Source: an uncultured Gammaproteobacteria bacterium (lineage in GTDB: Bacteria; Pseudomonadota; Gammaproteobacteria; JAKDMP01). From it: a stretch of 64,000 bases of DNA. This document shows positions 39,305-58,773 of this stretch, piece after piece. The stretch covers positions 104,182 through 168,181 of the forward strand of contig CAWJLN010000009.1 of assembly GCA_963843735.1 (NCBI GenBank). Reading direction: 5' to 3'. The first letter of the stretch is position 1. Each line of letters opens with the position of its first letter. The notes below the pieces were generated by a model. That model did not search any database, was not told the DNA's origin, and worked only from the letters and a program-made list of their open reading frames with translations. The translations under genes were made by a program, and so were the position numbers.

Positions 39305-39649
39305 TCAAATATCCTGCTGCAGAAACACGCCCACGCGACGCAGCGTCTCTTCGTTGCGCACGTAGAAAGTCCACTGCCCGCAGCGCTTCGCCTCGATCAA
39401 TCCGGCCTGCTGGAGCTGGGCCAGGTACTGCGAAGCCGTGGACTGCGACAGGCCGAGTTTCTTCTGAATCTCGCCCACGCAGACCCGATCGCCCCGGCAC
39501 TCGCCATTCGGCGTCGGGCCGAAATTCTTGTCCGGCTCCCGCATCAGGCTCAGAATCTTGAGCCGCGACTCGTTCGCCAGTGCCTTGAAGACAGTCACTT
39601 CGTCCATGCGCATCAATATATCACGAAATCCCGATATGTCAATACGCAT
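39305..39649 (-). CDS. ArsR/SmtB-family metalloregulator-type transcriptional repressor
   Basis: FKALANESRLKILSLM...VGEIQKKLGLSQSTASQYLAQLQQAGLIEAKRCGQWTFY (wHTH). The true start may be the internal ATG at 39613 or 39607. Confidence 0.8.
   Translation of the reverse strand: MRIDISGFRDILMRMDEVTVFKALANESRLKILSLMREPDKNFGPTPNGECRGDRVCVGEIQKKLGLSQSTASQYLAQLQQAGLIEAKRCGQWTFYVRNEETLRRVGVFLQQDI
39606..39649. promoter_or_regulatory. Imperfect 17-nt inverted repeat (possible ArsR operator)
   Basis: atgcgcatcaatatatc (39606-39622) and gatatgtcaatacgcat (39633-39649) match in 13 of 17 positions as an inverted repeat, separated by 10 nt. It covers the first 15 codons of the longest arsR ORF. Confidence 0.3.
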
Positions 39650-39734: not shown

Positions 39735-40320
39735 GAACACTCCACCGGCTAAAGCCGGTGGCTTCGGATTACGGCTGAAAGCCGGATCGGTCGGCCATGC
39801 GGCCGACTACACAACCTGAAAGTCATCGTCAGGCTCCGGCGGCTTCTGCTCCTCGATGTAACGGTGCCACACCTCGTCGGTCACGTTCCCGCTCGTGCAT
39901 ACCCAGTAGCCTCGCGCCCACAGGTGCTGTCCCCAATACCGCTTCCTCAGCCGCGCAAACTCCGTCAGAAGCTTGTGCGAACTCTTGCCCTTCATGTACT
40001 GCACCGCCCGCGATACCGATAGATACGGCGGTATCCCTATCAGCATGTGCACATGATCCCGATTGATCGCCCCCGCATAGATGCGCATCTCCTTCGCCCG
40101 CGCTATCTCGCGCAGCAACTCCCGGCAGCGCTCTCCTACTTCCCCGCCCAGTACCTGATATCGGTACTTCGTCGTCCACACCAGGTGGTACTTGCAGTCC
40201 CACACCGTGTGGCTCCCGCGCTTATAATCCTCCATCTCCTCAGCATAACCTAGTCAACCTGTCCGCCGGCTAAAGCCGGGGGGTTTACTGATCCCCTATC
40301 GGGGACTCTAAAAGCCGATG
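39735..40320 (-). mobile_element. IS200/IS605-family insertion sequence (tnpA only); boundaries approximate
   Basis: A Y1 HUH transposase gene flanked by subterminal hairpins. These are CCACCGGC-TAAA-GCCGGTGG (39742-39761), GTCGGCC-ATGC-GGCCGAC (39790-39807), CCGGC-TAAA-GCCGG (40266-40279) and TCCCC-TATC-GGGGA (about 40291-40304). Confidence 0.6.
39807..40235 (-). CDS. tnpA: IS200/IS605 family transposase TnpA (Y1 HUH)
   Basis: 142 aa: VWDCKYHLVWTTKYRYQVL, HUH motif in DHVHMLI, YMKGKSSHKL, catalytic-Tyr region RGYWVCTSGNVTDEVWHRYIEEQ. Confidence 0.9.
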   Translation of the reverse strand: MEDYKRGSHTVWDCKYHLVWTTKYRYQVLGGEVGERCRELLREIARAKEMRIYAGAINRDHVHMLIGIPPYLSVSRAVQYMKGKSSHKLLTEFARLRKRYWGQHLWARGYWVCTSGNVTDEVWHRYIEEQKPPEPDDDFQVV

Positions 40321-40373: not shown

Positions 40374-41606
40374 GTGGATGTGGAATTAACATTGAAATCA
40401 GCGGTAAAGCTCAAACTTCCATGGCGACAAGCTGACACATTTATATCAGCCGTTCATTCGAGAACGAGAGTGAGCGGTTTGACGCACGACTTTTACAAGT
40501 ACCCAGCCCGCTTTTCTCCCGAATTCGCGAGAGCGACAATTACGTCGCTCTCGCGTCCCGGCGACATCATTGCCGACCCATTCATGGGCGGAGGCACATC
40601 GCTAGTTGAAGCGCGGGCTACCGGGCGTCTGTCAGTTGGCTGTGACATTAGTAGCCTTGCTACTTTTGTAGCCCGGGCAAAAACACAAGTCTTATCTCCT
40701 GACGAACTTCATAATGTAAGCACATGGCTGCAGTGCCTTCCCGATAACATTAACCTCCGGATTCACTCCTCCAATGAGAATATTTGGGCAGAACGTGGTT
40801 ACTTCAAACATCTTAACGGTCCATCTACTTGGCCAATCCGCAAATTTATAGAGTTGGCACTACCGCGTCTCTACGAGCTTCCAGGATACAAACAACGCGT
40901 ATTCGCTAGATGCGTAATGTTACGCACTGCGCAATGGGCGATAGATGGCAGGAAGACCATTCCCAACATTGCAACATTCCGACACCAGTTTCGGGAAATC
41001 GCGTCCCGCATGACACAAGGCAGCCAAGATTTTAGCGCTATGTCCTTAGCGGCCGATAAGCTCTCGCAGACATCCCGACGCTCCCGGATACTATGCATCA
41101 ACTCCCCAGCATCTAGGTTGCCTGCGTTCTACTCCGCCCGCCACAGCAATGCACCGAAGTTGGTATTGACATCCCCCCCGTATCCCGGGGTTCATATGCT
41201 TTACCACCGCTGGCAGCTATTCGGTGGCAAGGAATCTCCTGCGCCATTCTGGATCGCTAACCGGTTAGATGGTGCCGGCGAATCGCATTACCTAATGCAT
41301 GCACGCAAAGATGACAAAACGAGATATTTTGGCGAACTTGAGGCCGCGCTAAAGCCCTTAGTAGTCCTCGCGAAACGAGATACAACATTCGTCCAACTCG
41401 TGGCGTTTTCCGATCCACAAAAGCAACTCCCCAAATATCTCGAAACAATGGAGCGCTGCGGATTGCGGGAACACATCCTTTCTGAACACATTGATTCTCA
41501 CGATGGAAGACTATGGAGAACAGTTCCTAATAGGCGTTGGCACGCTCAGTCGAAGGGTGCACTTGAGTCGTCACGTGAAGTAGTCCTGCTCCACAGACCC
41601 TCCTAG
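40374..41606 (+). CDS. Putative DNA (N6-adenine or N4-cytosine) methyltransferase
   Basis: AdoMet motif I IIADPFMGGGTSLVEA (aa ~65-80) and catalytic motif IV LVLTSPPYPG (aa ~265-275), in an AT-richer region. Confidence 0.75.
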   Translation: MDVELTLKSAVKLKLPWRQADTFISAVHSRTRVSGLTHDFYKYPARFSPEFARATITSLSRPGDIIADPFMGGGTSLVEARATGRLSVGCDISSLATFVARAKTQVLSPDELHNVSTWLQCLPDNINLRIHSSNENIWAERGYFKHLNGPSTWPIRKFIELALPRLYELPGYKQRVFARCVMLRTAQWAIDGRKTIPNIATFRHQFREIASRMTQGSQDFSAMSLAADKLSQTSRRSRILCINSPASRLPAFYSARHSNAPKLVLTSPPYPGVHMLYHRWQLFGGKESPAPFWIANRLDGAGESHYLMHARKDDKTRYFGELEAALKPLVVLAKRDTTFVQLVAFSDPQKQLPKYLETMERCGLREHILSEHIDSHDGRLWRTVPNRRWHAQSKGALESSREVVLLHRPS

Positions 41607-43831
41607 CGCAACATTAAGCCAGGCTCATTTGGGGGATATACATTTTTAGGTGTCCTCACCGGTATCGCTAAATGCTTCAAGTTCGGAATCTGTAAGTCCG
41701 GACAACTGATCTATCATCGGAAGCAGCATGGGTGCAACTGCCCGTGAATACAGCCGGATATGTTCTTCCGACGATTTTTCATATTCCGAAGACGCTTCTG
41801 ACCCTGGAACATTCTTGTTCGTTGCGTTAGCACCATCTAGTTCGTGAAGAAGCGCCAAACCAAGCAACACATTCCCATATTTGAACTTGGCTTCCAAGAG
41901 ACGCACATCCTGTTTCGAGTATTTCATTTCCGTTTGCAGAGAATCATTATCCACGTTGATATAAAACGTATGCTGCACTCCATCATCGCCCTCCTCCGCT
42001 ATAGGCTCGGAGATTACATGGCACGCCGTTTGATCATCAAACTTATACTTCTTCCAGTAAGTATCATCCTTACGAACCGGGACAACATCCGGGAGTCTTA
42101 GGCCTTCATTGCCCAGCTTCCCTTCACCACCTCTTCGTTGACGCGTAGGCTGAACAGTGACCTCGATTAGGTTCACAAATGGCTCTATTAGAGTCGCATC
42201 ATAAACACTCGCTTGCAAAACAAAAGTTTCGCCAACACTTGCGTCCTCTGGAAGGGCCATATTTAGGAAAGCTTCGCCATCCTCAAGCGCCAAACTATGA
42301 CCTGGTATGTTCTCCGACTCGGTTCCATCTACTATTTCAAGCTCGAACGTACCTCGATCCTCAGGGCGATCAAAATATTCATTTTCGACATCCGTTTCGA
42401 ACTTTATCCGGCATCTCCGCCTTAACTCAGCGTTCCGTTTATAGACCTGCCCATACTCAACGGCCGATATCCGGAAGTAGGTTGGGTGCCTTTTGCCCTC
42501 AAAATCCTCCGGCTTATTTGGCTTTCCTCCGCCACCACGTTCTCCTGGAGCCTTGCCGGGTCGCGAAAACGGACGTGAGAGCCGCTGACCGCGCAAAAAC
42601 AAAGCCTGCAACGTAGGAGAAGACTTCAATACCTTGCTAAGCACCTCTTCAAGTGGTCGCTCTTCGCTCAAGCGAGATTGGACATCCTTATCTTTGCGTT
42701 CCTGCTGCAACCTGCGAAGGTCTTTATGCTCCTTAAGCATCTGTTCAATTTCACGCTCCAATGCGTATCTTATTGAACTCTTGCTTAGCCGATCACGGCT
42801 GGGCATAAAAAGATCTTCCCTCTGTCGCACCGAAATCTTCGAGCAGTCAATGAGAACCAGCAAGGAGTCTTTTAGCCGCGGCAGGCCTACGGCTTTCGGT
42901 CTTGCAAACATGGTACGCGGCAGGTACCCATGAGCCTGACCGTTGATTGCAAAAATAACGCCCTCGTCTCGAAGATACGTAGATGCACGGTCTTCCTTGA
43001 ACGCATATATTCTCCCGCTCAACTCCATGCCTACCGCATTCAATCGAACTGACTTCGGGAACCCGTGCTCCAGGTTGCCACCTCTACCGTCTTCTAGGCG
43101 AACGACTAGGCCGGAAACCGTCGTCGCAAAACTTCTCTCCTTATCGCCGCGATATCCACGGCATTCGTGTAGCCGAAACGGCAACGCTGTTTCTGGCAAC
43201 AGCCTCTCAAGAGCATACAAGAGTCCATCAGGTAACAGAACATTACTTTGTCCGACTGTTGTCTTGTACTCGTAAAGCTTTATCGCAGTACCCCACGCCA
43301 CATCGCGAGCGTACGGCTCGTCATGCTCAGGCATTAGTGGCATGGAATCGGATCGGAAGCTAAGTACGCCGCCCTTTCTAGGGCTGTCCTCAGCACCAAT
43401 AGGCGATAGATAAGTGAATTCGGAATGCACTGGTTCACCGCTTAGGTCGCTTGGTTCTTCACGTCTAACAACTGTCACAGCCCATTTGTCGACGGTTGGA
43501 TCCTTATCCCTTTCACATCCAGAAAGCCCTGGATGACGTCGCGTAATCACAAGCTGAAGTCCGAGATCCCCGCAGAACCGAAGGGCACCCGATCCGCCCA
43601 TATTAAATTTCCCTTGGACAAATCGAACCCGCTGCTTATTCGTCGCATTTAGCGAAAGGATCGTTACAGGGATTCTGGAAGCACTTTGCCCTTCCCCTTG
43701 ATCAGCGACTGTGAGACAAAATGATCTGCTAGACCTTCCTTTAGTAGGACGATCTCCTGTTGCGGCTATAGTGATGGGGTAATCCCCCCGGAAAGTAGCG
43801 GAGATCAGAAGTAGAATTTTCTCTTAACGGA

Positions 43832-44113
43832 ATGAGGAGGTTCTACGTGAAGAAGTCTCGATTCAGCGACAGTCAGATCATGAGCATTTTGAAGCAGGCC
43901 GAGGCGGGTACGCCGGTGGCCGAGCTATGCCGGGAGCACGGCATGAGCGGTGCGCTGTTCTACCGCTGGCGGGCGAAGTACGGGGGGATGGACGCCTCGC
44001 TGATGCGCCGTCTCAGGGAGTTGGAGGAGGAGAACCGGCGGCTGAAGAAGATGTACGCCGAGGAGCGGCTCAAGGCGGAGATTGTGAGCGAGGCGCTCAC
44101 AAAAAAATGGTGA
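43832..44113 (+). CDS. IS3-family transposase OrfA (HTH)
   Basis: [48 protein letters not shown] plus a leucine-zipper-like tail. Confidence 0.85.
44101..44107 (+). other. Programmed -1 ribosomal frameshift heptamer A_AAA_AAA of the IS3 element
   Basis: In the orfA frame the sequence reads ac[A AAA AAA] TGG TGA. After a -1 slip the orfB frame reads [11 protein letters not shown].... Confidence 0.7.
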
Positions 44114-44934
44114 GGCCATCTCGGCGCCGCGAGATGGCCAGGCAAGCGGTTAAGAGACGAGGCGTAAGCATTCGGGCGGCGTGTGCGGCCTTTGCGCTGA
44201 GCGAGACCTGCTACCGCTACGAACCCAAGCACTCAGAGGAGAATGGCGAGATCGCCGAGTGGCTGATCCGCTTGACGCACAATCAGAGGAACTGGGGCTT
44301 CGGGCTGTGCTTTCTGTATCTGAGGAACGTCAAGGGCTACGGCTGGAACCACAAGCGGGTGTATCGGATCTATCGGGCGCTGGAACTGAACCTGCGCATC
44401 AAGCCGAGAAAGCGCCTGGTGCGCGAGAAGCCCCAAGCCCTGGCCGTACCACAAGCGATCAACGCGGTCTGGTCCATGGACTTCATGCACGATCAGCTCG
44501 CCGACGGGCGCAGCTTGCGCCTGTTCAACGTCATTGACGACTACAACCGCGAGGGTCTCGGCATCGAGGTCGGCTTCTCGCTGCCTGCCGCGCGGGTAAT
44601 CCGTGCTCTGGAGCGGATCATCGAATGGCGAGGTGCACCGCGGGCGATCCGCTGCGACAACGGCCCCGAATACATCAGCGGGGAGTTGCTCGCCTGGGCG
44701 CGCAAGCGCGCCATCCGCATCGACTACATCCAGCCCGGCAAACCGCAGCAAAACGCCTACATCGAGCGCTACAACCGCACCGTGCGCTACGACTGGCTCG
44801 CCCATTACCTGTTCGACACCATCCACGAGGTGCAGGCGTTCGCTACCCGCTGGCTGTGGACGTATAATCACGAGCGGCCCAATATGGGCCTCGGTGGCGT
44901 GACACCCATGCAGAAGTTGGCCATGGCGGCCTAA
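44101..44934 (+). CDS. IS3-family transposase OrfB (DDE catalytic domain; expressed as an OrfAB fusion)
   Basis: DDE triad context: [34 protein letters not shown]. Confidence 0.85.
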
Positions 44935-45362
44935 ACCCTACTTCTGACCACCGCTAAATATGGGGGGATTACCATGGCGCGCGCCTGCTGAGTGCGGTGA
45001 GTTTCCGGCCAGTCTATAAGCATGCCCGGTTCGTCGAAGAATGCTTTTACAGCTTCTCGAATTCCACGCGGAGCATTTTCTGACTCGGGTTGAATCCCTT
45101 TCTTCAGGCATTCAGCCATTAGCGTTGAATCTACACTGTTCACGATTTTTTCAATGAGAGCAGCTTCAGAGAAGTTCTGCTGATTCCCAACCGTGGCAAA
45201 ATTTCCTTCCTTGTCCCCATAAAGTCGCCAAAGTTGATTATCGTCCCAGAGCTCGCGAGCCTTAAGAATTTGGATAACTTCATGCTCCGACTCAGCGTGA
45301 AGCAAATCCAGAGCCAAGACTTTAACTTCTTGATCGTTCATGATTTTCTCCGTCCTCGGAAT

Positions 45363-46004
45363 TCAGGGCGAACGCGCGGGCAATTCCTGCCATAAAGCTA
45401 GGAATGCATTCATGTCTGCGGTGCGCGCCAAAAAAACATACCCATCGCGGCCACGTTTCTCGACTGCCGCAGAGTTTCTTAGCCACGCGATTGTGGCATA
45501 TACTTGATACGCAGGTATTTCTTCGCCTTCCTTGGTAGTAACAGGGAGAAGCTCATCGACCTCAAATTTTTTACTCTGACCGCGCTTCATAATCAGCCTA
45601 TTAAATATCGTTTCAGCTACGGCCCGAGGCACCTTATGCTCATATTCCGTTTTGTTCTTCTTGGACCATCCCACTTTTATCAACCGCTCGTCGTCACGCT
45701 CGAACCTCGGGTAGGCGAAAGATCGTCCTCGTTTTACTTTTCTTAACTTGGAGTTTATACCGTCTGCGCTTGCCTTCACTTCCGACAAGTCGTGCTTCTT
45801 TTCGCCTTTTTGCACAGTATTACCTGCGATACCATGCCCCAGCACATAAAACTCTCTTTTTTGCAGCGTGGAGACCGCTTCCGCTAGCTGAGCTACAAAC
45901 GCAACCTCCTCGTAGCCACTATTTTTCAACGAGTCCTCGATGAGAGTCCGCAAGGATGTTTCCGTTGAAGCCAAAAGCTTCTTCGCTTTTTGTATTGTAT
46001 CCAT
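45363..46004 (-). CDS. Hypothetical protein (orfX), first gene of the GHKL ATPase operon
   Basis: 213 aa from the ATG at 46004 (MDTIQKAKKLL...). Its stop lies 21 nt before the ATPase ATG, which has GGAG 8 nt upstream. I recognise no family. The C-terminal stretch (IPAYQVYATIAWLRNSAAVEKRGRDGYVFL) is vaguely winged-helix-like. Confidence 0.55.
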   Translation of the reverse strand: MDTIQKAKKLLASTETSLRTLIEDSLKNSGYEEVAFVAQLAEAVSTLQKREFYVLGHGIAGNTVQKGEKKHDLSEVKASADGINSKLRKVKRGRSFAYPRFERDDERLIKVGWSKKNKTEYEHKVPRAVAETIFNRLIMKRGQSKKFEVDELLPVTTKEGEEIPAYQVYATIAWLRNSAAVEKRGRDGYVFLARTADMNAFLALWQELPARSP

Positions 46005-46231
46005 ATTGTAATTATATGTCTTTGTCCATGGAAGTAAGTAGTGCCGTTGTTTTACTTCTTTAACTGCCAAAACTGCCAAAGTGACTTGTCCAAATCGCTC
46101 AGCAATGCCCCATGGCGGTGCAAGTGTCGAAAACTCCGGCTTTGGCGTCTACCGCCGCTAGGCGGACAAGGCCATGCGGCTATTGTTTTTACGTGCATTT
46201 TCATATACATTAAGCGAGTTAAAGGCAATAT

Positions 46232-46606
46232 ATGTTGACGTTAAAAATGGAAACGAGCCGGACAAGCTCGACACTGCCGCTGCCGGTCGGGCGCCTTCTG
46301 CGCAAGCTGGGGCAGGACATCCGGGACGCCCGGAGACGGCGGCGTATCCCCGTGGCGGTGATGGCGGAGCGGGCCTCCATCAGCCGGGCAACCCTGAGCA
46401 AGGTGGAAAAAGGCGCTCCCGGAGTATCGGCAGGCACCTACGCCGCCGTGCTCTTCGTCCTGGGTCTGGCGGAGCGAATCGGGAATCTGGCCGATGCTGC
46501 GAGCGACACGCTGGGCCTCGATCTGGAGGAAGAGCGTTTGCCGCAGCGCATCCGGGGTCGCCGCAGCCGCGCGTCCGCCTCGCAGGCAAAGACGGGCAAA
46601 GACTGA
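46232..46606 (+). CDS. hipB: XRE/HipB-type HTH antitoxin
   Basis: VGRLLRKLGQDIRDARRRRRIPVAVMAERASISRATLSKVEKG is an HTH_XRE motif. Its stop overlaps the hipA ATG (ATGA form, 46604-46608). Confidence 0.75.
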   Translation: MLTLKMETSRTSSTLPLPVGRLLRKLGQDIRDARRRRRIPVAVMAERASISRATLSKVEKGAPGVSAGTYAAVLFVLGLAERIGNLADAASDTLGLDLEEERLPQRIRGRRSRASASQAKTGKD

Positions 46607-47892
46607 TGGACGCCGAAATACTTGTTTACGTGGATCTGGAGGGCGAGCCGATTCTGGCAGGCCGGCTGTGGGCTCGCACGCGCAAGGATCGGGAGAGCGC
46701 CACATTCGAGTACGACAAGGACTGGCTCGCCCATCCGGCTCGCTTCTCCCTTGAGCCGGCGCTGCAACTCGGCCCCGGCCCGTTTCACACGCCGGCCGGC
46801 AAGCCCTTGTTCGGCGCCATCGGCGATTCTGCACCCGATCGCTGGGGCCGTGTGCTCATGCGCCGCGCCGAACGTCGGCGGGCGGAACGCGCCGGGGAAA
46901 CGCCACGGACGTTGCGCGAGAGTGACTATCTCCTGACGGTTAACGACGAGGCGCGTCAAGGCGCGCTGCGTTTTGCGCGGCAGCCGGGAGGACCATTCCT
47001 TGCCACCGGTTTGTTGGCGATCCCGCCGCTGGTCGAGTTGCCTCGTCTGCTCTCCGCCGCCGAACATGTTGGCGACGATTCGGAAAGCGACGAAGACCTG
47101 CGCCTGCTGCTTGCGCCCGGTTCGTCGCTCGGGGGTGCAAGGCCCAAGGCGTCCGTTCGGGACAAAAACGGTGATCTGGCGATCGCCAAATTCCCGCACA
47201 AGGGCGATGAGATAGACGCCGTCCGATGGGAAGCCGTCGCACTGAGGCTGGCGGAGAAGGCGGGGATCGCGGTTCCGGAATGGCGACCGGAAACCGTTGC
47301 CGGGAAACAGACGCTGCTTCTACGCCGTTTTGACCGCGACGACGGCAGGCGCATACCGTTTCTTTCCGCCATGAGCATGCTCGGCGCAGACGATAACGAA
47401 ACCCGCAGCTATCTCGAATTTGTTGACGCGTTGCGCCGCTACGGCGCTGCGCCGAAACACGACATACAAATGCTTTGGCGACGCATCGTATTCAACATCC
47501 TGATTTCCAACACCGACGACCATCTGCGCAACCACGGATTTTTGTATGACGGTACGAACGGTTGGCGGCTCGCGCCGGCCTATGACCTCAACCCCGTACC
47601 GGTGGACATCAAGCCGCGAATACTAAGCACTGCAATCAATCTCGACGACGGCACGGCGTCGCTGGAACTGGCGTTGACGGTTGCCGAATATTTCGGACTG
47701 AATGCCGAACGGGCGCGCGCGATTGCGGCTGAAGTCGGAGAAGCCGTGGCAGACTGGCGCAAAGAGGCGGCGCAGCTGGGTTTGAAGGGAAGCGAAATTG
47801 ATCGCATGGCGAGCGCCTTCGAGCATGGCGATCTGCGGCAAGCGCGGTCCTTGCGGACCCTTGCCTCGCACAAGCCCGTTCAAAATCGGTAA
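46606..47892 (+). CDS. hipA: HipA-family serine/threonine kinase toxin
   Basis: MDAEILVYVDLEG (HipA N-domain), SLGGARPKASV, ISNTDDHLRNHGFLY (catalytic loop), YDLNP. The track ORF starting at 46174 is an upstream over-extension. Confidence 0.85.
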   Translation: MDAEILVYVDLEGEPILAGRLWARTRKDRESATFEYDKDWLAHPARFSLEPALQLGPGPFHTPAGKPLFGAIGDSAPDRWGRVLMRRAERRRAERAGETPRTLRESDYLLTVNDEARQGALRFARQPGGPFLATGLLAIPPLVELPRLLSAAEHVGDDSESDEDLRLLLAPGSSLGGARPKASVRDKNGDLAIAKFPHKGDEIDAVRWEAVALRLAEKAGIAVPEWRPETVAGKQTLLLRRFDRDDGRRIPFLSAMSMLGADDNETRSYLEFVDALRRYGAAPKHDIQMLWRRIVFNILISNTDDHLRNHGFLYDGTNGWRLAPAYDLNPVPVDIKPRILSTAINLDDGTASLELALTVAEYFGLNAERARAIAAEVGEAVADWRKEAAQLGLKGSEIDRMASAFEHGDLRQARSLRTLASHKPVQNR

Positions 47893-56498: not shown

Positions 56499-58773
56499 CT
56501 AATTTTGCGTTGTGGCGGCGGCCGCGGCAGGCACATTCGTGCAGTTCAGATATTGCGTCAGGGCATCGCGCCACGCCTGCTTTGGATCGAAGTTTGTGGC
56601 CAAACCATCCGCTGTTTTGAGCCCCATAGCAAAATCCATGCCGAATTGCACCATATAGCGCGGATAGTAATTTGGGGGTCCCATGCGTTCGAGTTTCTCG
56701 CAGGCTGCTGCCAATTTGGCAGGCGTTTTCGCAGTTGCTGCCAAGTCTTTGCCGAGAGCTTTTATTTCGGCTTCAGACATGGCTTCTTTCGACCGGTTTA
56801 ACAGAACCATGTCCACGTTATGGGTCGTAGGATCAGGCACACGGCGCATATCGAAATCGGCATAAACCCCAGCCATCATCAGCATGAACACGGCCTTGCC
56901 GTAGTCGTTGGTTTTAACGCATTTGACAATTGCAGAAAACAGATCCGGCGGTGTGTCATTGTTGCTTAACTTGTCGGCCGCTACGCAGCCGATATCGCTT
57001 GTGGGTGCCAGAGGGTCTGCTGCTTGGCTGCCATCTGTCGTTGAAGCGGAGCGCGGCATCATTGCCGAAGTACCTGCAGGCATTGCGCTGGCTTCGACGT
57101 TTGAACAGTGCAAATTGTCTTTGAGGGTTTCGGTCCAGGCTTTCGCAGCATCAAAGCCTGGCACCAAACCTTGCGCGGTCTGCATCCCCGTGAACATTTG
57201 CATGCCGTGTCCGACCATATACTCGGGATAGTAACCGGGAGGGCCTATTTCCGCGATGCGTTTGCAAATAGCTCCAAAACGCACGGGGTCATTAAGGATT
57301 TTGTATTTGACGGAATCGAATTTCTTGAGCTTGGATTGGGGTACGCCATTCGCAACTATTCCCAACATTTCCGAATTCACTCCGTGAGCCGTTTTGTCGG
57401 CAACACGCAGGGTATCTAAGTCCGCATAGGCAATAGAGAGCGCAAACACAAACATGGCACGGTCGTACCGATCATGCATCAAGCACTCCATCCACGCGAA
57501 ATCCAGGTCCACCGGCGTGTCCTTGCTGGTTAGCTTGTCAGGCGGAAGGCAGTCTAGTTTAGGTGCTGATTCCTCCGCATCCGGGCCTTCCTGTTCGCGT
57601 ATCGTCGCAAGTTGTTTGGCGAGGTAGGCCGTTAGACTGCTCGGGGCACTAGTACCCTGTGTTTCCCCTGCCGCCGGGTTTTCGCCTTTCTCAACGATAT
57701 CAATAAAAACAGGCGCGCTCACCCCGCCGCATTTGATCTTTGTGCATGCCCGCACTTCCCACCACACCGCCTGCCAATCTTCGTTTGTTGGCTCTGTCTC
57801 TTTCACCGTTGTTGTTGTGATACCCATTTGCTGGGCCCCATGAGAACCGTTACGAAATAAATCGTAGTGATCTGCGCCAGGGACAGGATCCCAGCTTAGC
57901 GTGTATGTGTCGCCTGCGCTAGTGGTTTTGGTGCTGACACGAAGATTTTCTACGCGTGGAGGCGCGTCCCACGCCTCATGTGCCTTCAAAAAGGAAATCA
58001 CCTTGTCACGCCATTCGGTTCGATAAGGAGAGTCACTTGCCTGGAAGGAAAACACCAAATAATCCTCCAGAGTTTTCCCGTCGGCGTCCTTCAGGCTGTA
58101 ATCCGCCCCCGCTTCAAGAAGTTCATAGACCACATCAAATAACCCATCGTTTACGGCTTCCATCATCGCAGTCTCCCCCCCACTCGAAGGATACTTTGGA
58201 AGCCCGCCCCGCCAAATTGGGGTCCGGTAATTAAGGTCCGCCCCAGCCCTTATCAACAGTGGAACATTTACCTTCCCGCTCACGGTGTCTGCCGCGATGA
58301 GAGGGGTCTTACCTGTATGCGGCGCTATCAAATTAGGGTTGGCGCCATGCTTCAGGGCTTGTTCCATGAAGTATGGATTTTCAGAGCAGCAGGCAATGTT
58401 GTTAAGCAGCGTGTAGCCGTCGGTCCATACGTTATTGGGATCCGCTCCATGGTCGAGTAATGCTTTAAATCCGGCTTTGTTCCCTGCTTGTAAAGCAGAA
58501 AAAAGTGGTGTTATCCCGTACCGTCCATTTCCGTTGACATTCACACCGTGAGCAATCAAGACGTTCGATCTTTTTCAAATCGCCGTGTTGAGCCGCATCG
58601 GCGAGTTCTCTGAGCTTCGGATCAGAAAACAGGTCCGAGGGCGTCATGTACATGATCGGTTTATCGGGTTCTTTCGTCCCGGCGGCCGAAGCTTGATGGA
58701 ACCATAGCAAGCCCTCCACCAAAAAGGTTGCCAGCGCGACAGCAATCAGCATGAGCAGCGGCTTTCGCTCCAC
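56499..58773 (-). CDS. Secreted/membrane-anchored ankyrin-repeat protein with two tandem copies of an unrecognised four-Cys domain (one frame disruption near 58557)
   Basis: ORF 58465-58773 (TM/signal, ...AAQHGDLKKIERL) continues as IAHGVNVNGNGRYGITPL... in ORF 56499-58559. Ankyrin consensus repeats are followed by two 152-aa paralogous domains (57096-57551 and 56532-56987). Confidence 0.75.

Follow-up and report, generated by a model that had tools for sequence, protein, structure and literature searches.

A methyltransferase and GHKL ATPase gene pair as a candidate for a previously undescribed type of restriction-modification-like immunity

The paraMORC and MORC GHKL ATPases of prokaryotic restriction-modification (R-M) systems begin with a GHKL domain whose ATP motifs are intact; an S5/transducer-like domain follows, and the C-terminal extension differs from family to family. 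Their genes are linked to those of DNA methylases in operons, are scattered sporadically across phyla, and behave like parts of mobile islands (Iyer, Abhiman & Aravind 2008; PMC2292703). These features are shared by the family of an 831-aa ATPase encoded in the window, i.e., the whole 64,000-nt stretch of uncultured gammaproteobacterial DNA analysed here. Nevertheless, the family differs from MORC in having an invariant Gln where the MORC S5 signature requires Arg, and from paraMORC2–5 in lacking the ExxxH of paraMORC2, the RE-fold nuclease of paraMORC3, the TIR of paraMORC4, and the HxH of paraMORC5. Moreover, neither an SF2 helicase nor an endonuclease accompanies it, and it is bound to one dedicated methyltransferase of the permuted SPPY type.

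An ATPase is also needed on the restriction side of the NTP-dependent systems whose specificity is supplied by the methyltransferase, namely Type III R-M and the ATP-dependent Type II systems CglI and NgoAVII. The motor of our module, however, is a GHKL clamp-type ATPase, whereas theirs is an SF2 helicase or belongs to the Z1 family; our module lacks a PD-(D/E)xK or PLD nuclease, and its genes are convergent, not co-transcribed. As in the NTP-dependent systems, the candidate effector shows no obvious variable domain for recognition, which suggests that the methyltransferase may provide the specificity. GHKL-Shedu VcSduA, an experimentally validated anti-phage protein, resembles the 831-aa ATPase: a GHKL ATPase domain lies at its N-terminus, the middle domain is clamp-like, and a dimer is predicted (PMC12137116); yet it carries a C-terminal DUF4263 PD-(D/E)xK nuclease and works alone, without a methyltransferase, whereas the present family has no DUF4263 or PADLOC match. 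BREX (PMC11842806) likewise joins a self-marking, site-specific methyltransferase to ATPase components and was long without an obvious nuclease, but it comprises 4–8 genes with PglX, PglZ, and BrxC, none of which is homologous to anything in this module of 2–3 genes. The HEF_HK/Response_reg_2 pair near Type II R-M systems (PMC8011034) also consists of a small upstream protein and a HATPase_c_3-type GHKL protein linked to DNA methylases. That pair occurs mainly with C5 methylases, whereas here PF19191 and PF19192 were not matched and the small upstream protein, orfX, appears to be winged-helix rather than receiver-like. Searches with PADLOC, Pfam, NCBIfam, and PHROGs gave no assignment of the arrangement to a named system, in agreement with the preliminary description of this locus.

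The module lies in an AT-richer island of 5.9 kb, whose mean GC, with the insertion sequence left out, is 0.503 (range 0.466–0.538 in 500-nt windows), 4.2 sd below that of the remaining window (0.642 ± 0.033). The compositional drop proposed previously is therefore borne out by a windowed calculation (0.50 in the island versus 0.64 in the rest of the window), and it is well outside window-to-window noise. Horizontal acquisition of the island is part of what we regard as the best, and probably correct, explanation of the locus. The flanks contain ArsR (39305–39649) and an IS200-type Y1 transposase (39807–40235) on one side and HipB/HipA (46232–47892) on the other. The insertion-sequence and toxin–antitoxin neighbours that had suggested a defence island are thus present locally; elsewhere this context is weakly supported because the neighbours in other genomes are heterogeneous, with adjoining genes mostly of the housekeeping or mobile-element kind and PADLOC defence genes in the minority.

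The methyltransferase gene (40374..41606, + strand) is intact and encodes a 410-aa protein that matches Pfam N6_N4_Mtase (3e-12) and PADLOC MTase_II (5.6e-17). The AdoMet motif I and motif IV attributed to it earlier are in place: motif I (DPFMGGGTS, aa 68–76) is followed by a variable, target-recognition-like middle region (about aa 120–262) and then by motif IV (TSPPYPG, aa 266–272), an order circularly permuted with respect to beta-class N4/N6 methyltransferases. TSPPYPG is kept in 69 of 72 family members, and the mean p-distance of the variable region exceeds that of the catalytic core (0.74 vs 0.47). No segment of the ATPase co-varies specifically with this variable region, which speaks against the R-M-like reading proposed below. 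DNA is the likely target, and the invariant SPPY of motif IV points to N4-methylcytosine as the probable product.

Convergent on this gene, the ATPase gene extends on the minus strand from 45341 down to 41646 and is split within codon 123 by an IS3-family insertion sequence of 1,196 bp (43778..44973, + strand), delimited by terminal inverted repeats and a target duplication. The 5′ fragment (44974..45341, − strand) encodes residues 1–122 plus 2 nt of codon 123 and includes Bergerat motif I (E64xxxN68xxD71). The 3′ fragment (41646..43777, − strand) takes up the rest of the gene, from inside codon 123 through residue 831 and the stop codon, and encodes Bergerat motifs II–IV, the S5/transducer-like domain, a coiled coil, a G/K/R linker, Ig-like β-sandwiches, and a helical acidic tail. 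The inverted repeat of the element (GGTAATCCCCCC) is perfect over 12 nt, and the two copies of the 4-bp target duplication ATGG (43774–43777 and 44974–44977) are identical; orfA (43832–44113) matches HTH_Tnp_1 (3.7e-23), and orfB, which ends at 44934, contains an rve domain (7.8e-21). Deletion of the element and one duplication copy in silico yields an uninterrupted 831-aa ORF with EAALIEKIVNSVDS, VADQGEGQ, GKFNMGGSGALRF, the linker, and the acidic tail, and in alignments with homologues the reconstructed protein has no indel at the junction. The split gene, its motifs, and its convergence on the methyltransferase are thus as first described; the same is true of the 213-aa orfX (45363..46004, − strand; ATG at 46004, stop at 45363–45365), which stops 21 nt short of the ATPase start codon (45341). 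Secondary lesions are absent from both ATPase gene fragments, and the GC content of the element (0.611) is host-like, unlike that of the surrounding island. A very recent insertion from a resident element is the best explanation and belongs to the same, probably correct, overall account. The element is not part of the module. It has inactivated the ATPase in this genome and, consequently, has left an intact methyltransferase that is now effectively solitary, a pattern of decay in favour of the R-M-like reading given below.

The ATPase family comprises 2,623 clusters at 50% identity. All database entries for its members are annotated “hypothetical protein”, and neither Pfam, NCBIfam, PADLOC, nor PHROG has a model dedicated to it; searches of the same four collections with the ATPase and orfX returned nothing at E ≤ 0.1, or only noise, and neither protein matched a characterised family or a named system. 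Four Bergerat motifs (E64xxxN68xxD71, D147xGxG151, G177KFNMGGSG185, and G284T285) are nevertheless invariant across 77 homologues and preserved in bacterial and archaeal relatives of only 23–31% identity. The best Foldseek matches of the predicted structure are GyrB/ParE 43-kDa ATPase-plus-transducer fragments (E ~1e-5, probability 1.0), although confidence in the model is no more than moderate (pLDDT 64) and its TM-scores to GyrB are low (0.31–0.34). Most of the family falls under the Pfam threshold for HATPase_c_3; the profile is matched by 9 of 60 representatives, and a Hymenobacter relative scores 26.1 bits against a gathering cut-off of 25. On conserved motifs, predicted fold, and the HATPase_c_3 matches of family members and distant relatives, the ATPase can be assigned to the GHKL superfamily, as had been proposed. 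The accompanying label “MORC-like” fits as far as the GHKL plus S5/transducer architecture is concerned; strict MORC identity is ruled out by the invariant Gln, and “paraMORC-like” is the accurate term.

The methyltransferase and the ATPase are strictly, if asymmetrically, linked. The former is present at 62 of 62 ATPase-seeded genome loci with room for it, the latter at 39 of 42 methyltransferase-seeded metagenome loci, and the two genes are convergent in 69 of 76 loci (median gap, 32 nt). It might be argued that the adjacency is coincidental or the 831-aa ORF non-functional, given that the local copy is interrupted and that the database entries are all hypothetical. This reading is refuted by the >1,500 full-length homologues (40–65% identity, 117 invariant residues) and by the near-universal linkage to one methyltransferase family in both search directions, and its probability is, in our opinion, negligible. 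The conserved unit is a two-gene core. Accordingly, of the three-gene module suggested at first, the methyltransferase–ATPase pair stands and orfX is not part of the core.

Profile and Foldseek searches of the ATPase, orfX, and their neighbourhood detected no nuclease, helicase, or other effector fold, just as the initial inspection had recognised no nuclease or helicase. One could therefore suppose that the visible genes are part of a larger system, with the GHKL protein as a sensor or clamp and the nuclease or helicase encoded elsewhere or supplied by MutH/UvrD-like host factors. MutL, the closest functional analogue, works through separate nucleases (PMC2292703). Moreover, the more distant relatives of the ATPase are accompanied by a second GHKL protein and a 635–680-aa unknown protein. 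However, no fourth conserved gene recurs within ±10 kb across 80 genome loci, and the compact unit crosses phyla, a transfer that an unlinked, lineage-specific partner would make difficult. We consider a larger system unlikely.

The family was found in 405 species genomes of at least 12 phyla, with a patchy distribution (~0.2% of species); it is rare in plasmids and was not found in 50,697 phage genomes. Solitary methyltransferases occur (n = 3) and solitary ATPases do not (n = 0). This asymmetry would suit a purely selfish post-segregational-killing cassette with no meaningful antiviral role, in which the ATPase attacks the host chromosome once methylation is diluted, as would the small mobile islets beside IS elements and toxin–antitoxin genes and the weak enrichment of defence genes among neighbours. 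Yet addiction and defence are compatible in R-M systems, the recognition region of the methyltransferase diversifies fast, as it should if invaders exert selection, and the rarity in plasmids and absence from the phage genomes speak against such a cassette; we give it a low probability. Still less probable is methyl-directed repair or epigenetic regulation, in which a strand or site mark would direct a MutL-like ATPase. The “NGQxHG” and “SRDRL” motifs within a MutL/MORC-like arrangement of GHKL and S5 domains and the Dam–MutL–MutH precedent (PMC2292703) would fit it, but the patchy spread, the foreign GC of the island, the dispensability of the IS-disrupted local module, the hypervariable recognition region, and the lack of a MutS-like or MutH-like partner do not.

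The position of orfX recalls the controller (C) proteins, which, as is established in R-M biology, are expressed from one transcript with the endonuclease and bind operator sites in the promoter that drives them (PMC9757035). C-protein Type II systems such as PvuII and Esp1396I have, like the orfX-bearing loci as predicted, a small DNA-binding gene directly 5′ of, and co-transcribed with, the restriction-side gene, a methyltransferase in a separate transcription unit, and repeated operator-like sites over a controller promoter with a very short leader (PMC9757035). In contrast to C proteins, which are Xre-type HTH proteins of 80–100 aa, orfX is confidently modelled (AF2 mean pLDDT 83.9) as a helical hairpin (aa 2–56), a disordered linker (57–95), and a three-stranded sheet with a winged helix (100–207), to which Foldseek gives weak but consistent winged-helix matches. 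The “R” gene here is an 831-aa GHKL ATPase without a recognisable endonuclease. The methyltransferase gene of Esp1396I is also convergent, as in our module. None of the 43 orfX homologues is named. Among 77 genome loci, 35 have the gene directly 5′ of the ATPase, and it occurs at only 2 of 63 methyltransferase-seeded metagenome loci containing the ATPase; since most loci lack it, it is inessential to the core mechanism. In other subclades it is swapped for unrelated genes: at least 4 or 5 non-homologous families, orfX among them, fill this slot, and their distribution follows the ATPase subclades (orfX, 31 of 33).

A TATAAT at 46016–46011 (within 46005..46016, − strand), followed by a 6-nt leader to the orfX ATG, is a candidate −10 element for the near-leaderless promoter of the presumed orfX–ATPase operon. 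The same geometry is seen in the closest homologue (L089) and at many loci that also have TTGAC at −35, whereas the local promoter has neither a good −35 hexamer nor CCTGTA repeats. In 32 orfX promoter windows, C[CG]TGTA, a motif picked after inspecting the data, occurs 17 times against ~0.5–0.8 expected, mostly at 11-nt spacing, and tandem pairs are found nowhere else in the loci. These repeats are operator-like, and orfX is most likely a C-like regulator.

Our best reading is that the module belongs to the predicted paraMORC-type R-M systems, with the GHKL protein as candidate ATP-dependent effector on the restriction side, and that it is probably an R-M-like module, built on a core of two genes, for defence or addiction. 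In favour of this reading, more distant relatives of the ATPase adjoin a C5 methyltransferase, a beta-class N6/N4 methyltransferase, or PAPS-reductase/SspBCD-like (phosphorothioation-type) clusters; against it, some, in Pontibacillus and Haladaptatus, have no annotated modification gene nearby. The methyltransferase would place its mark on host DNA at a short motif, which its fast-evolving middle region would determine. Upon ATP binding, the N-terminal MutL/MORC-type GHKL and S5 module of the ATPase would probably dimerise, and the protein, with its coiled coil, basic linker, two Ig-like domains, and C-terminal helical domain, would probably clamp and act on unmarked DNA. A nuclease, either cryptic or recruited from the host, or else a block that involves no DNA cleavage may underlie its presumed toxicity. 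As a predicted winged-helix protein co-transcribed with the ATPase, orfX would attach to phased repeats in the near-leaderless promoter that drives it, so that in a newly entered cell methylation may precede production of the effector. Comparative genomics suggests a defence role, and the methyltransferase–ATPase pair, which carries no recognisable DNA-cutting domain, looks like an undescribed kind of R-M-style immunity.

The compositional drop noticed in the preliminary description is borne out by windowed GC. Over 40.25–46.0 kb of the window, with the inserted IS excluded, 500-nt windows have a mean GC content of 0.503 (range 0.466–0.538), compared with 0.642 ± 0.033 in the rest of the window, which places the island mean 4.2 standard deviations lower. 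The ORF map and the sequence also bear out the gene layout proposed there. A 410-aa methyltransferase gene (40374–41606, + strand) is convergent with, and separated by 39 nt from, an ATPase gene that is present as a 3′ piece (43777–41646, − strand) and a 5′ piece (45341–44974, − strand), split by a 1,196-bp element of the IS3 family (43778–44973). The 213-aa orfX, on the same strand as the ATPase gene, ends 21 nt before the ATPase ATG. The flanking genes are those named earlier: an IS200-type Y1 transposase (39807–40235) brackets the island on the left and a HipB/HipA toxin–antitoxin pair (46232–47892) on the right, with ArsR also in the flank. No tRNA gene, integrase, att-type repeat or flanking direct repeat was found at the island boundary, and a promoter/terminator consensus scan of the island returned fewer matches than shuffled sequence. 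A second low-GC patch in the window (GC 0.52–0.55 vs 0.64) corresponds to one 686-aa ORF at 56499–58559 (− strand), which has ankyrin-like repeats in its N-terminal part and an internal duplication in its C-terminal half; this gene, too, was probably acquired horizontally.

The IS3 element, whose ORFs match HTH_Tnp_1 and rve, has perfect 12-nt terminal inverted repeats and a perfect 4-bp target duplication (ATGG), and it interrupts the ATPase gene within codon 123. In silico deletion of the element and one duplication copy yields a clean 831-aa ORF, to which all residue numbers below refer; the restored junction (QQARAITIAATG) matches the homologues with no indel in the alignment. Neither ATPase fragment contains a further lesion, and the methyltransferase gene is intact. 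The single lesion, together with the host-like GC content of the element (0.611, unlike that of the island), indicates a recent insertion from the resident IS pool; judged from these features, the knockout of the putative effector gene appears to be very recent. Inactivation of the local copy lowers the value of the window locus, not that of the family, for which an intact module in the cultured strain Luteimonas vadosa JCM 18392 (locus L025; NZ_BAABJY010000001.1, about 281.9–286.4 kb) provides an experimental handle.

Co-localisation in other genomes, on which the preliminary description had made its three-gene proposal depend, holds for the methyltransferase and the ATPase. Among 80 genome loci obtained in ATPase-seeded searches, the methyltransferase is present in all 62 that have enough flanking DNA, and it is convergent and located just downstream of the ATPase in 69 of 76 loci, where the median intergenic distance is 32 nt. 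Methyltransferase-seeded searches produced 80 metagenome loci, 63 of which contain the ATPase; 13 of the 17 others stop within 600 nt of the methyltransferase, and the ATPase is found in 39 of the 42 loci having at least 1 kb on either side. Coincidental adjacency is thereby excluded. Three methyltransferases are solitary (loci L101, L148 and L162, with flanks of 1.5–6 kb), with no ATPase detected even at a tblastn E cut-off of 10; a solitary ATPase was found in 0 of 62 loci. Solitary methyltransferases in the absence of solitary ATPases are what one would expect of an ATPase that does harm when methylation is lacking. Decay in the window, with its intact methyltransferase and broken ATPase, runs in the same direction. 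The same asymmetry would also fit a rival, unlikely reading of the pair as a purely selfish addiction cassette.

Relatives of the ATPase occur in 405 of 185,579 species genomes and on five IMG/VR contigs, and are absent from 50,697 phage genomes. Searches of 1.84 billion representatives gave 2,623, 1,848 and 877 family clusters (50% identity) at E ≤ 1e-3, 1e-10 and 1e-30, respectively. The nearest neighbours of the module elsewhere are housekeeping genes, recombinases/transposases and a few defence genes. The two-gene core is horizontally mobile, and its linkage is both obligate and asymmetric.

The methyltransferase matches PF01555 (N6_N4_Mtase) with 47.3 bits (cut-off 26.7) and, in PADLOC, generic MTase_II models only. 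Its AdoMet motif I (DPFMGGGTS) lies about 200 residues ahead of the catalytic motif IV (TSPPYPG), which amounts to a circular permutation of the beta-class order. TSPPYPG is found in 69 of 72 module-linked homologues, in which DPFMGGGTT is nearly invariant. By motifs and Pfam model, the protein is a predicted N6/N4 amino-DNA-methyltransferase. SPPY favours N4-cytosine; the methylation target is presumably DNA, and N4-cytosine in particular. No full-length relatives were found in 72,556 plasmids, and the methyltransferase is a dedicated partner of the ATPase. Residues 120–262 diverge far more than the catalytic core (mean p-distance 0.74 vs 0.47), the pattern expected of a target-recognition domain that diversifies specificity. 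No ATPase segment was found to co-evolve specifically with this recognition region (maximum partial r 0.23, residues 721–780, with the core equally high), which mildly favours the methyltransferase as the source of specificity, as in Type III systems. In 72 paired loci, the helical C-terminal residues 721–780 are the one part of the ATPase whose residual co-variation with the methyltransferase is positive (partial r about 0.2 for recognition region and core alike), a weak hint that a protein–protein contact may exist there.

The ATPase belongs to a large family that has escaped annotation. At least 1,514 relatives of about 850 aa, with 55–65% identity, are all labelled ‘hypothetical’ and lack any Pfam assignment; the 831-aa protein itself has no match at E ≤ 0.1 in Pfam, NCBIfam, PADLOC or PHROGs. 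An alignment of 77 homologues drawn from many phyla has 117 positions with at least 97% conservation, including those of Bergerat motifs I–IV: E64xxxN68xxD71, D147xGxG151, G177KFNMGGSG185 and G284T285. All four motifs are kept in three relatives with 23–31% identity. Searches of PDB chains with the ATPase, by sequence and by profile, returned noise only (e.g., FAM155A, CpaA and MecA). The AlphaFold model, of moderate confidence (pLDDT 64), is more informative: at least the top 20 Foldseek matches in the PDB are the 43-kDa ATPase-plus-transducer fragments of GyrB/ParE (E-values 8e-6 to 1e-4, probability about 1.0), although TM-scores are low (0.31–0.34), with Topo VI-B further down the ranking. 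Taken together, the four motifs and the predicted fold, with its S5/transducer domain, place the protein in the GHKL (Bergerat-fold) superfamily. Of the Pfam families anticipated in the preliminary description, N6_N4_Mtase is matched by the methyltransferase, whereas HATPase_c_3 (PF13589; MORC/MutL-like GHKL) is not matched by the window ATPase at E ≤ 0.1. HATPase_c_3 is, however, matched by 9 of 60 diverse family representatives (E ≤ 0.01, best 4e-5), and a relative from Hymenobacter (29% identity; tblastn E-value 2e-47) reaches 26.1 bits against a gathering threshold of 25; membership of the window protein is therefore transitive, not direct.

The predicted architecture starts with the GHKL domain (residues ~1–295) and the S5/transducer-like domain (~300–455), followed by a coiled coil (457–521), a G/K/R linker (525–548), two Ig-like domains (550–730) bearing a conserved FxTDVENxYFxR motif, and a helical, acidic C-terminus. 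In the model, the C-terminal half consists of Ig-like beta-sandwiches, a fold that Foldseek also matches, plus helices; T583, D584, Y589, R592, D648, N729, N732 and K740 are its conserved polar residues. In the transducer region, F397..N400-G-Q402.H404 and S448-R449-D450-R451 are kept even in archaeal relatives; their putative counterparts in the MutL transducer domain are the elements ‘FVNGR’ and ‘HPxK’.

The structure comparisons of the ATPase and orfX that the preliminary description envisaged as a route to a nuclease or an S5 fold disclosed the transducer and no nuclease. Searches of the ATPase with Pfam, PADLOC and Foldseek revealed neither a nuclease or helicase nor a TIR domain or any other effector fold, and Foldseek with the full-length model returned GHKL and Ig-like matches only. 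A classical Type II restriction–modification (R-M) system combines a methyltransferase with a cognate endonuclease whose nuclease activity is recognisable or demonstrated; here, a methyltransferase and tight, mostly convergent linkage are present, and no nuclease domain was identified in the partner. The lack of a nuclease would fit a second rival, also unlikely, according to which the system is incomplete and needs unlinked partners; against it, the loci share no further gene family within ±10 kb of the module. Several candidate catalytic motifs were considered and rejected. PD-(D/E)xK readings of ‘NVDNDSLQTEMK’ have too short a spacing and fall in a segment modelled as helical; the ‘HECR’ motif lacks conservation in distant relatives and is not a core catalytic element; and a GIY-YIG reading of ‘YPRF...IKVGWSKK...EYEH’ in orfX disagrees with its confident beta-beta-beta-alpha model and finds no GIY-YIG match in Foldseek.

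The orfX model is confident (pLDDT 84) and starts with a helical hairpin, from which a disordered linker leads to a three-stranded sheet with a winged helix; its Foldseek matches are weak (E ≥ 0.05) and of winged-helix type, among them cullin WHB, IclR, Fur, DndG and the DpnI winged-helix domain. Its 43 detectable homologues are all unnamed. While orfX lies directly 5′ of the ATPase gene in 35 of 77 genome loci, the same slot is held in others by a ~400-aa family with a PaaX-like winged-helix tail, by ~80-aa and ~134-aa families, and by single HARE-HTH and HTH_17 proteins. That these genes are divergent orfX homologues was rejected (hhalign probability below 1%). The identity of the upstream gene follows the ATPase phylogeny, with nearest-neighbour concordance of 31/33 for orfX and 8/9 for the 80-aa family, so these genes are clade-specific components and not random neighbours.

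Many orfX loci have a canonical TTGAC-N17-TATAAT promoter that ends 6–12 nt 5′ of the ATG, with forward-strand copies of C[CG]TGTA between or over the hexamers. Seventeen copies occur in 32 63-nt windows upstream of the orfX ATG, against 0.47 expected from the locus background or 0.83 ± 0.91 (maximum 5) in 2,000 shuffles; since the motif was chosen post hoc, the statistic is inflated, and the effect is still large. Phased repeats are found in 12 of 32 orfX loci (including L025 9340–9400, L049 9330–9365 and L017 2075–2110, all from outside the window), and four of five neighbouring copies are spaced by 11 nt. Outside these promoters, the 80 loci contain no tandem C[CG]TGTA pairs, and the regions preceding the methyltransferase genes lack CCTGTA. 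These repeats suggest autoregulated, near-leaderless operons. A second shared promoter motif, TTTCGCTATATTATA, is present at other orfX loci. The window orfX and its closest relative (L089) keep the TATAAT and 6-nt-leader geometry, and the window promoter has neither CCTGTA nor TTTCGCTATATTATA repeats. In place of CCTGTA, the region 5′ of the window orfX (46040–46090, − strand) contains TTTGGCAGT twice in tandem and the inverted repeat GAAGTAA-N14-TTACTTC, which may be a clade-specific operator. R-M controller (C) proteins bind operators at their own promoter and share a transcript with the endonuclease gene (PMC9757035). OrfX resembles them in its upstream position, the 21-nt gap and the phased promoter repeats (12 of 32 loci, the window not among them), but C proteins are small Xre-type HTH proteins that bind repeated C-boxes, whereas orfX has a predicted winged-helix fold.

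Distant ATPase relatives (23–36% identity) adjoin other DNA-modification genes. SspBCD/Dnd-like clusters, made up of genes for PAPS reductase, DUF4007, cysteine desulfurase and a large ATPase, lie beside relatives in Ensifer pC (L081 1333–8421), Devosia (L169 1–14044), Hymenobacter (L082 5974–13905) and an IMG/VR contig (L086 4786–13427). On another IMG/VR contig a relative sits next to a C5 cytosine methylase between two integrases, and on a Halogeometricum plasmid beside a beta-class N6/N4 methyltransferase. Near two relatives (Pontibacillus and Haladaptatus) no annotated modification gene was found. At several distant loci there is an additional GHKL protein, which carries the annotation ‘sensor histidine kinase’ and matches a PADLOC/REBASE-derived REase_II model; at the phosphorothioation-type loci it is often present together with a 635–680-aa unknown protein. 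An identification of the distant relatives with SspFGH/DndFGH components was rejected, as they have no PADLOC/NCBIfam match and disagree with the Walker A and FtsK-like features published for SspF/H. The relatives at sspBCD loci may be an undescribed restriction partner of ‘orphan’ sspBCD clusters. An effector-side protein that swaps among modification chemistries bears the signature of a restriction component. A role of the pair in methyl-directed repair or regulation is a third rival reading, and an unlikely one.

To our knowledge, no methyltransferase-coupled GHKL/MORC-type ATPase has been characterised, and no named methyltransferase-plus-GHKL defence system was found in the literature. 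GHKL/MORC-type ATPases were predicted as R-M components in 2008 (Iyer et al. 2008; PMC2292703), and a GHKL–Shedu nuclease has since been validated (PMC12137116). The family differs from MORC sensu stricto, whose S5-domain signature is GhXhhpXXRhl (PMC2292703): the corresponding segment, in a register aligned by eye, is G394-V-I-F-A-I-N-G-Q402-A-H, and all 77 homologues, like the distant relatives, have an invariant Gln (Q402) at the MORC Arg position. Compared with the prokaryotic groups of the 2008 study, residues 300–460 do not conserve the ExxxH of paraMORC2 (C-terminal part of S5); the C-terminal RE-fold (E-D-ExK) nuclease of paraMORC3 is absent by Pfam, PADLOC and Foldseek; the C-terminal TIR of paraMORC4 has no match; and no His pair beyond residue 460 is conserved that could correspond to the HxH domain of paraMORC5. 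The description of paraMORC1 fits the family loosely, since the distant relatives adjoin a second HATPase_c_3 protein. PADLOC-DB v2, which covers systems described to 2023 (Mza, Shedu, BREX, DISARM, Dnd/Ssp, MADS, Hma and PDC candidates among them), has no family matching the ATPase or orfX at E ≤ 0.1. The family is thus without the MORC S5 signature, the paraMORC2–5 hallmarks, a PADLOC match, or a model of its own in any library screened. As far as sequence comparison can tell, it is set apart by a minimal two-gene core, in which a permuted methyltransferase serves as dedicated partner and no nuclease can be recognised.

In our opinion, the module is probably restriction–modification-like. 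The methyltransferase would mark self DNA, unmarked DNA would be the substrate of an ATP-dependent GHKL effector, and expression of this effector would be controlled by DNA-binding orfX or its analogues, with orfX putatively autoregulated. The ATPase would be toxic in its role as effector and, by analogy with MutL, MORC and GyrB, may act by ATP-driven dimeric clamping. A bolder version, which we regard as unlikely, is that a nuclease-free, MORC-like effector, dimerised by ATP, topologically entraps or compacts DNA without the mark of the partner methyltransferase and blocks replication or transcription of the invader uncut; it would be a bacterial counterpart, and possibly an evolutionary antecedent, of eukaryotic silencing by MORC plus DNA methylation, and its superfamily would be interchangeable between methylation and phosphorothioation marks.

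Current annotation would describe the pair as an orphan methyltransferase with hypothetical proteins, and no current database has a model for the family. With two obligately linked, highly conserved genes that are widespread in environmental bacteria, the family is the simplest test bed yet. Its superfamily pairs with four modification chemistries and may account for some ‘orphan’ phosphorothioation clusters, and an evolutionary link becomes testable through the parallel to MORC and DNA methylation in eukaryotes. If the ATPase restricts unmethylated DNA, damage or silencing without a recognisable nuclease must be explained, and the family would represent a new motor class in R-M biology.
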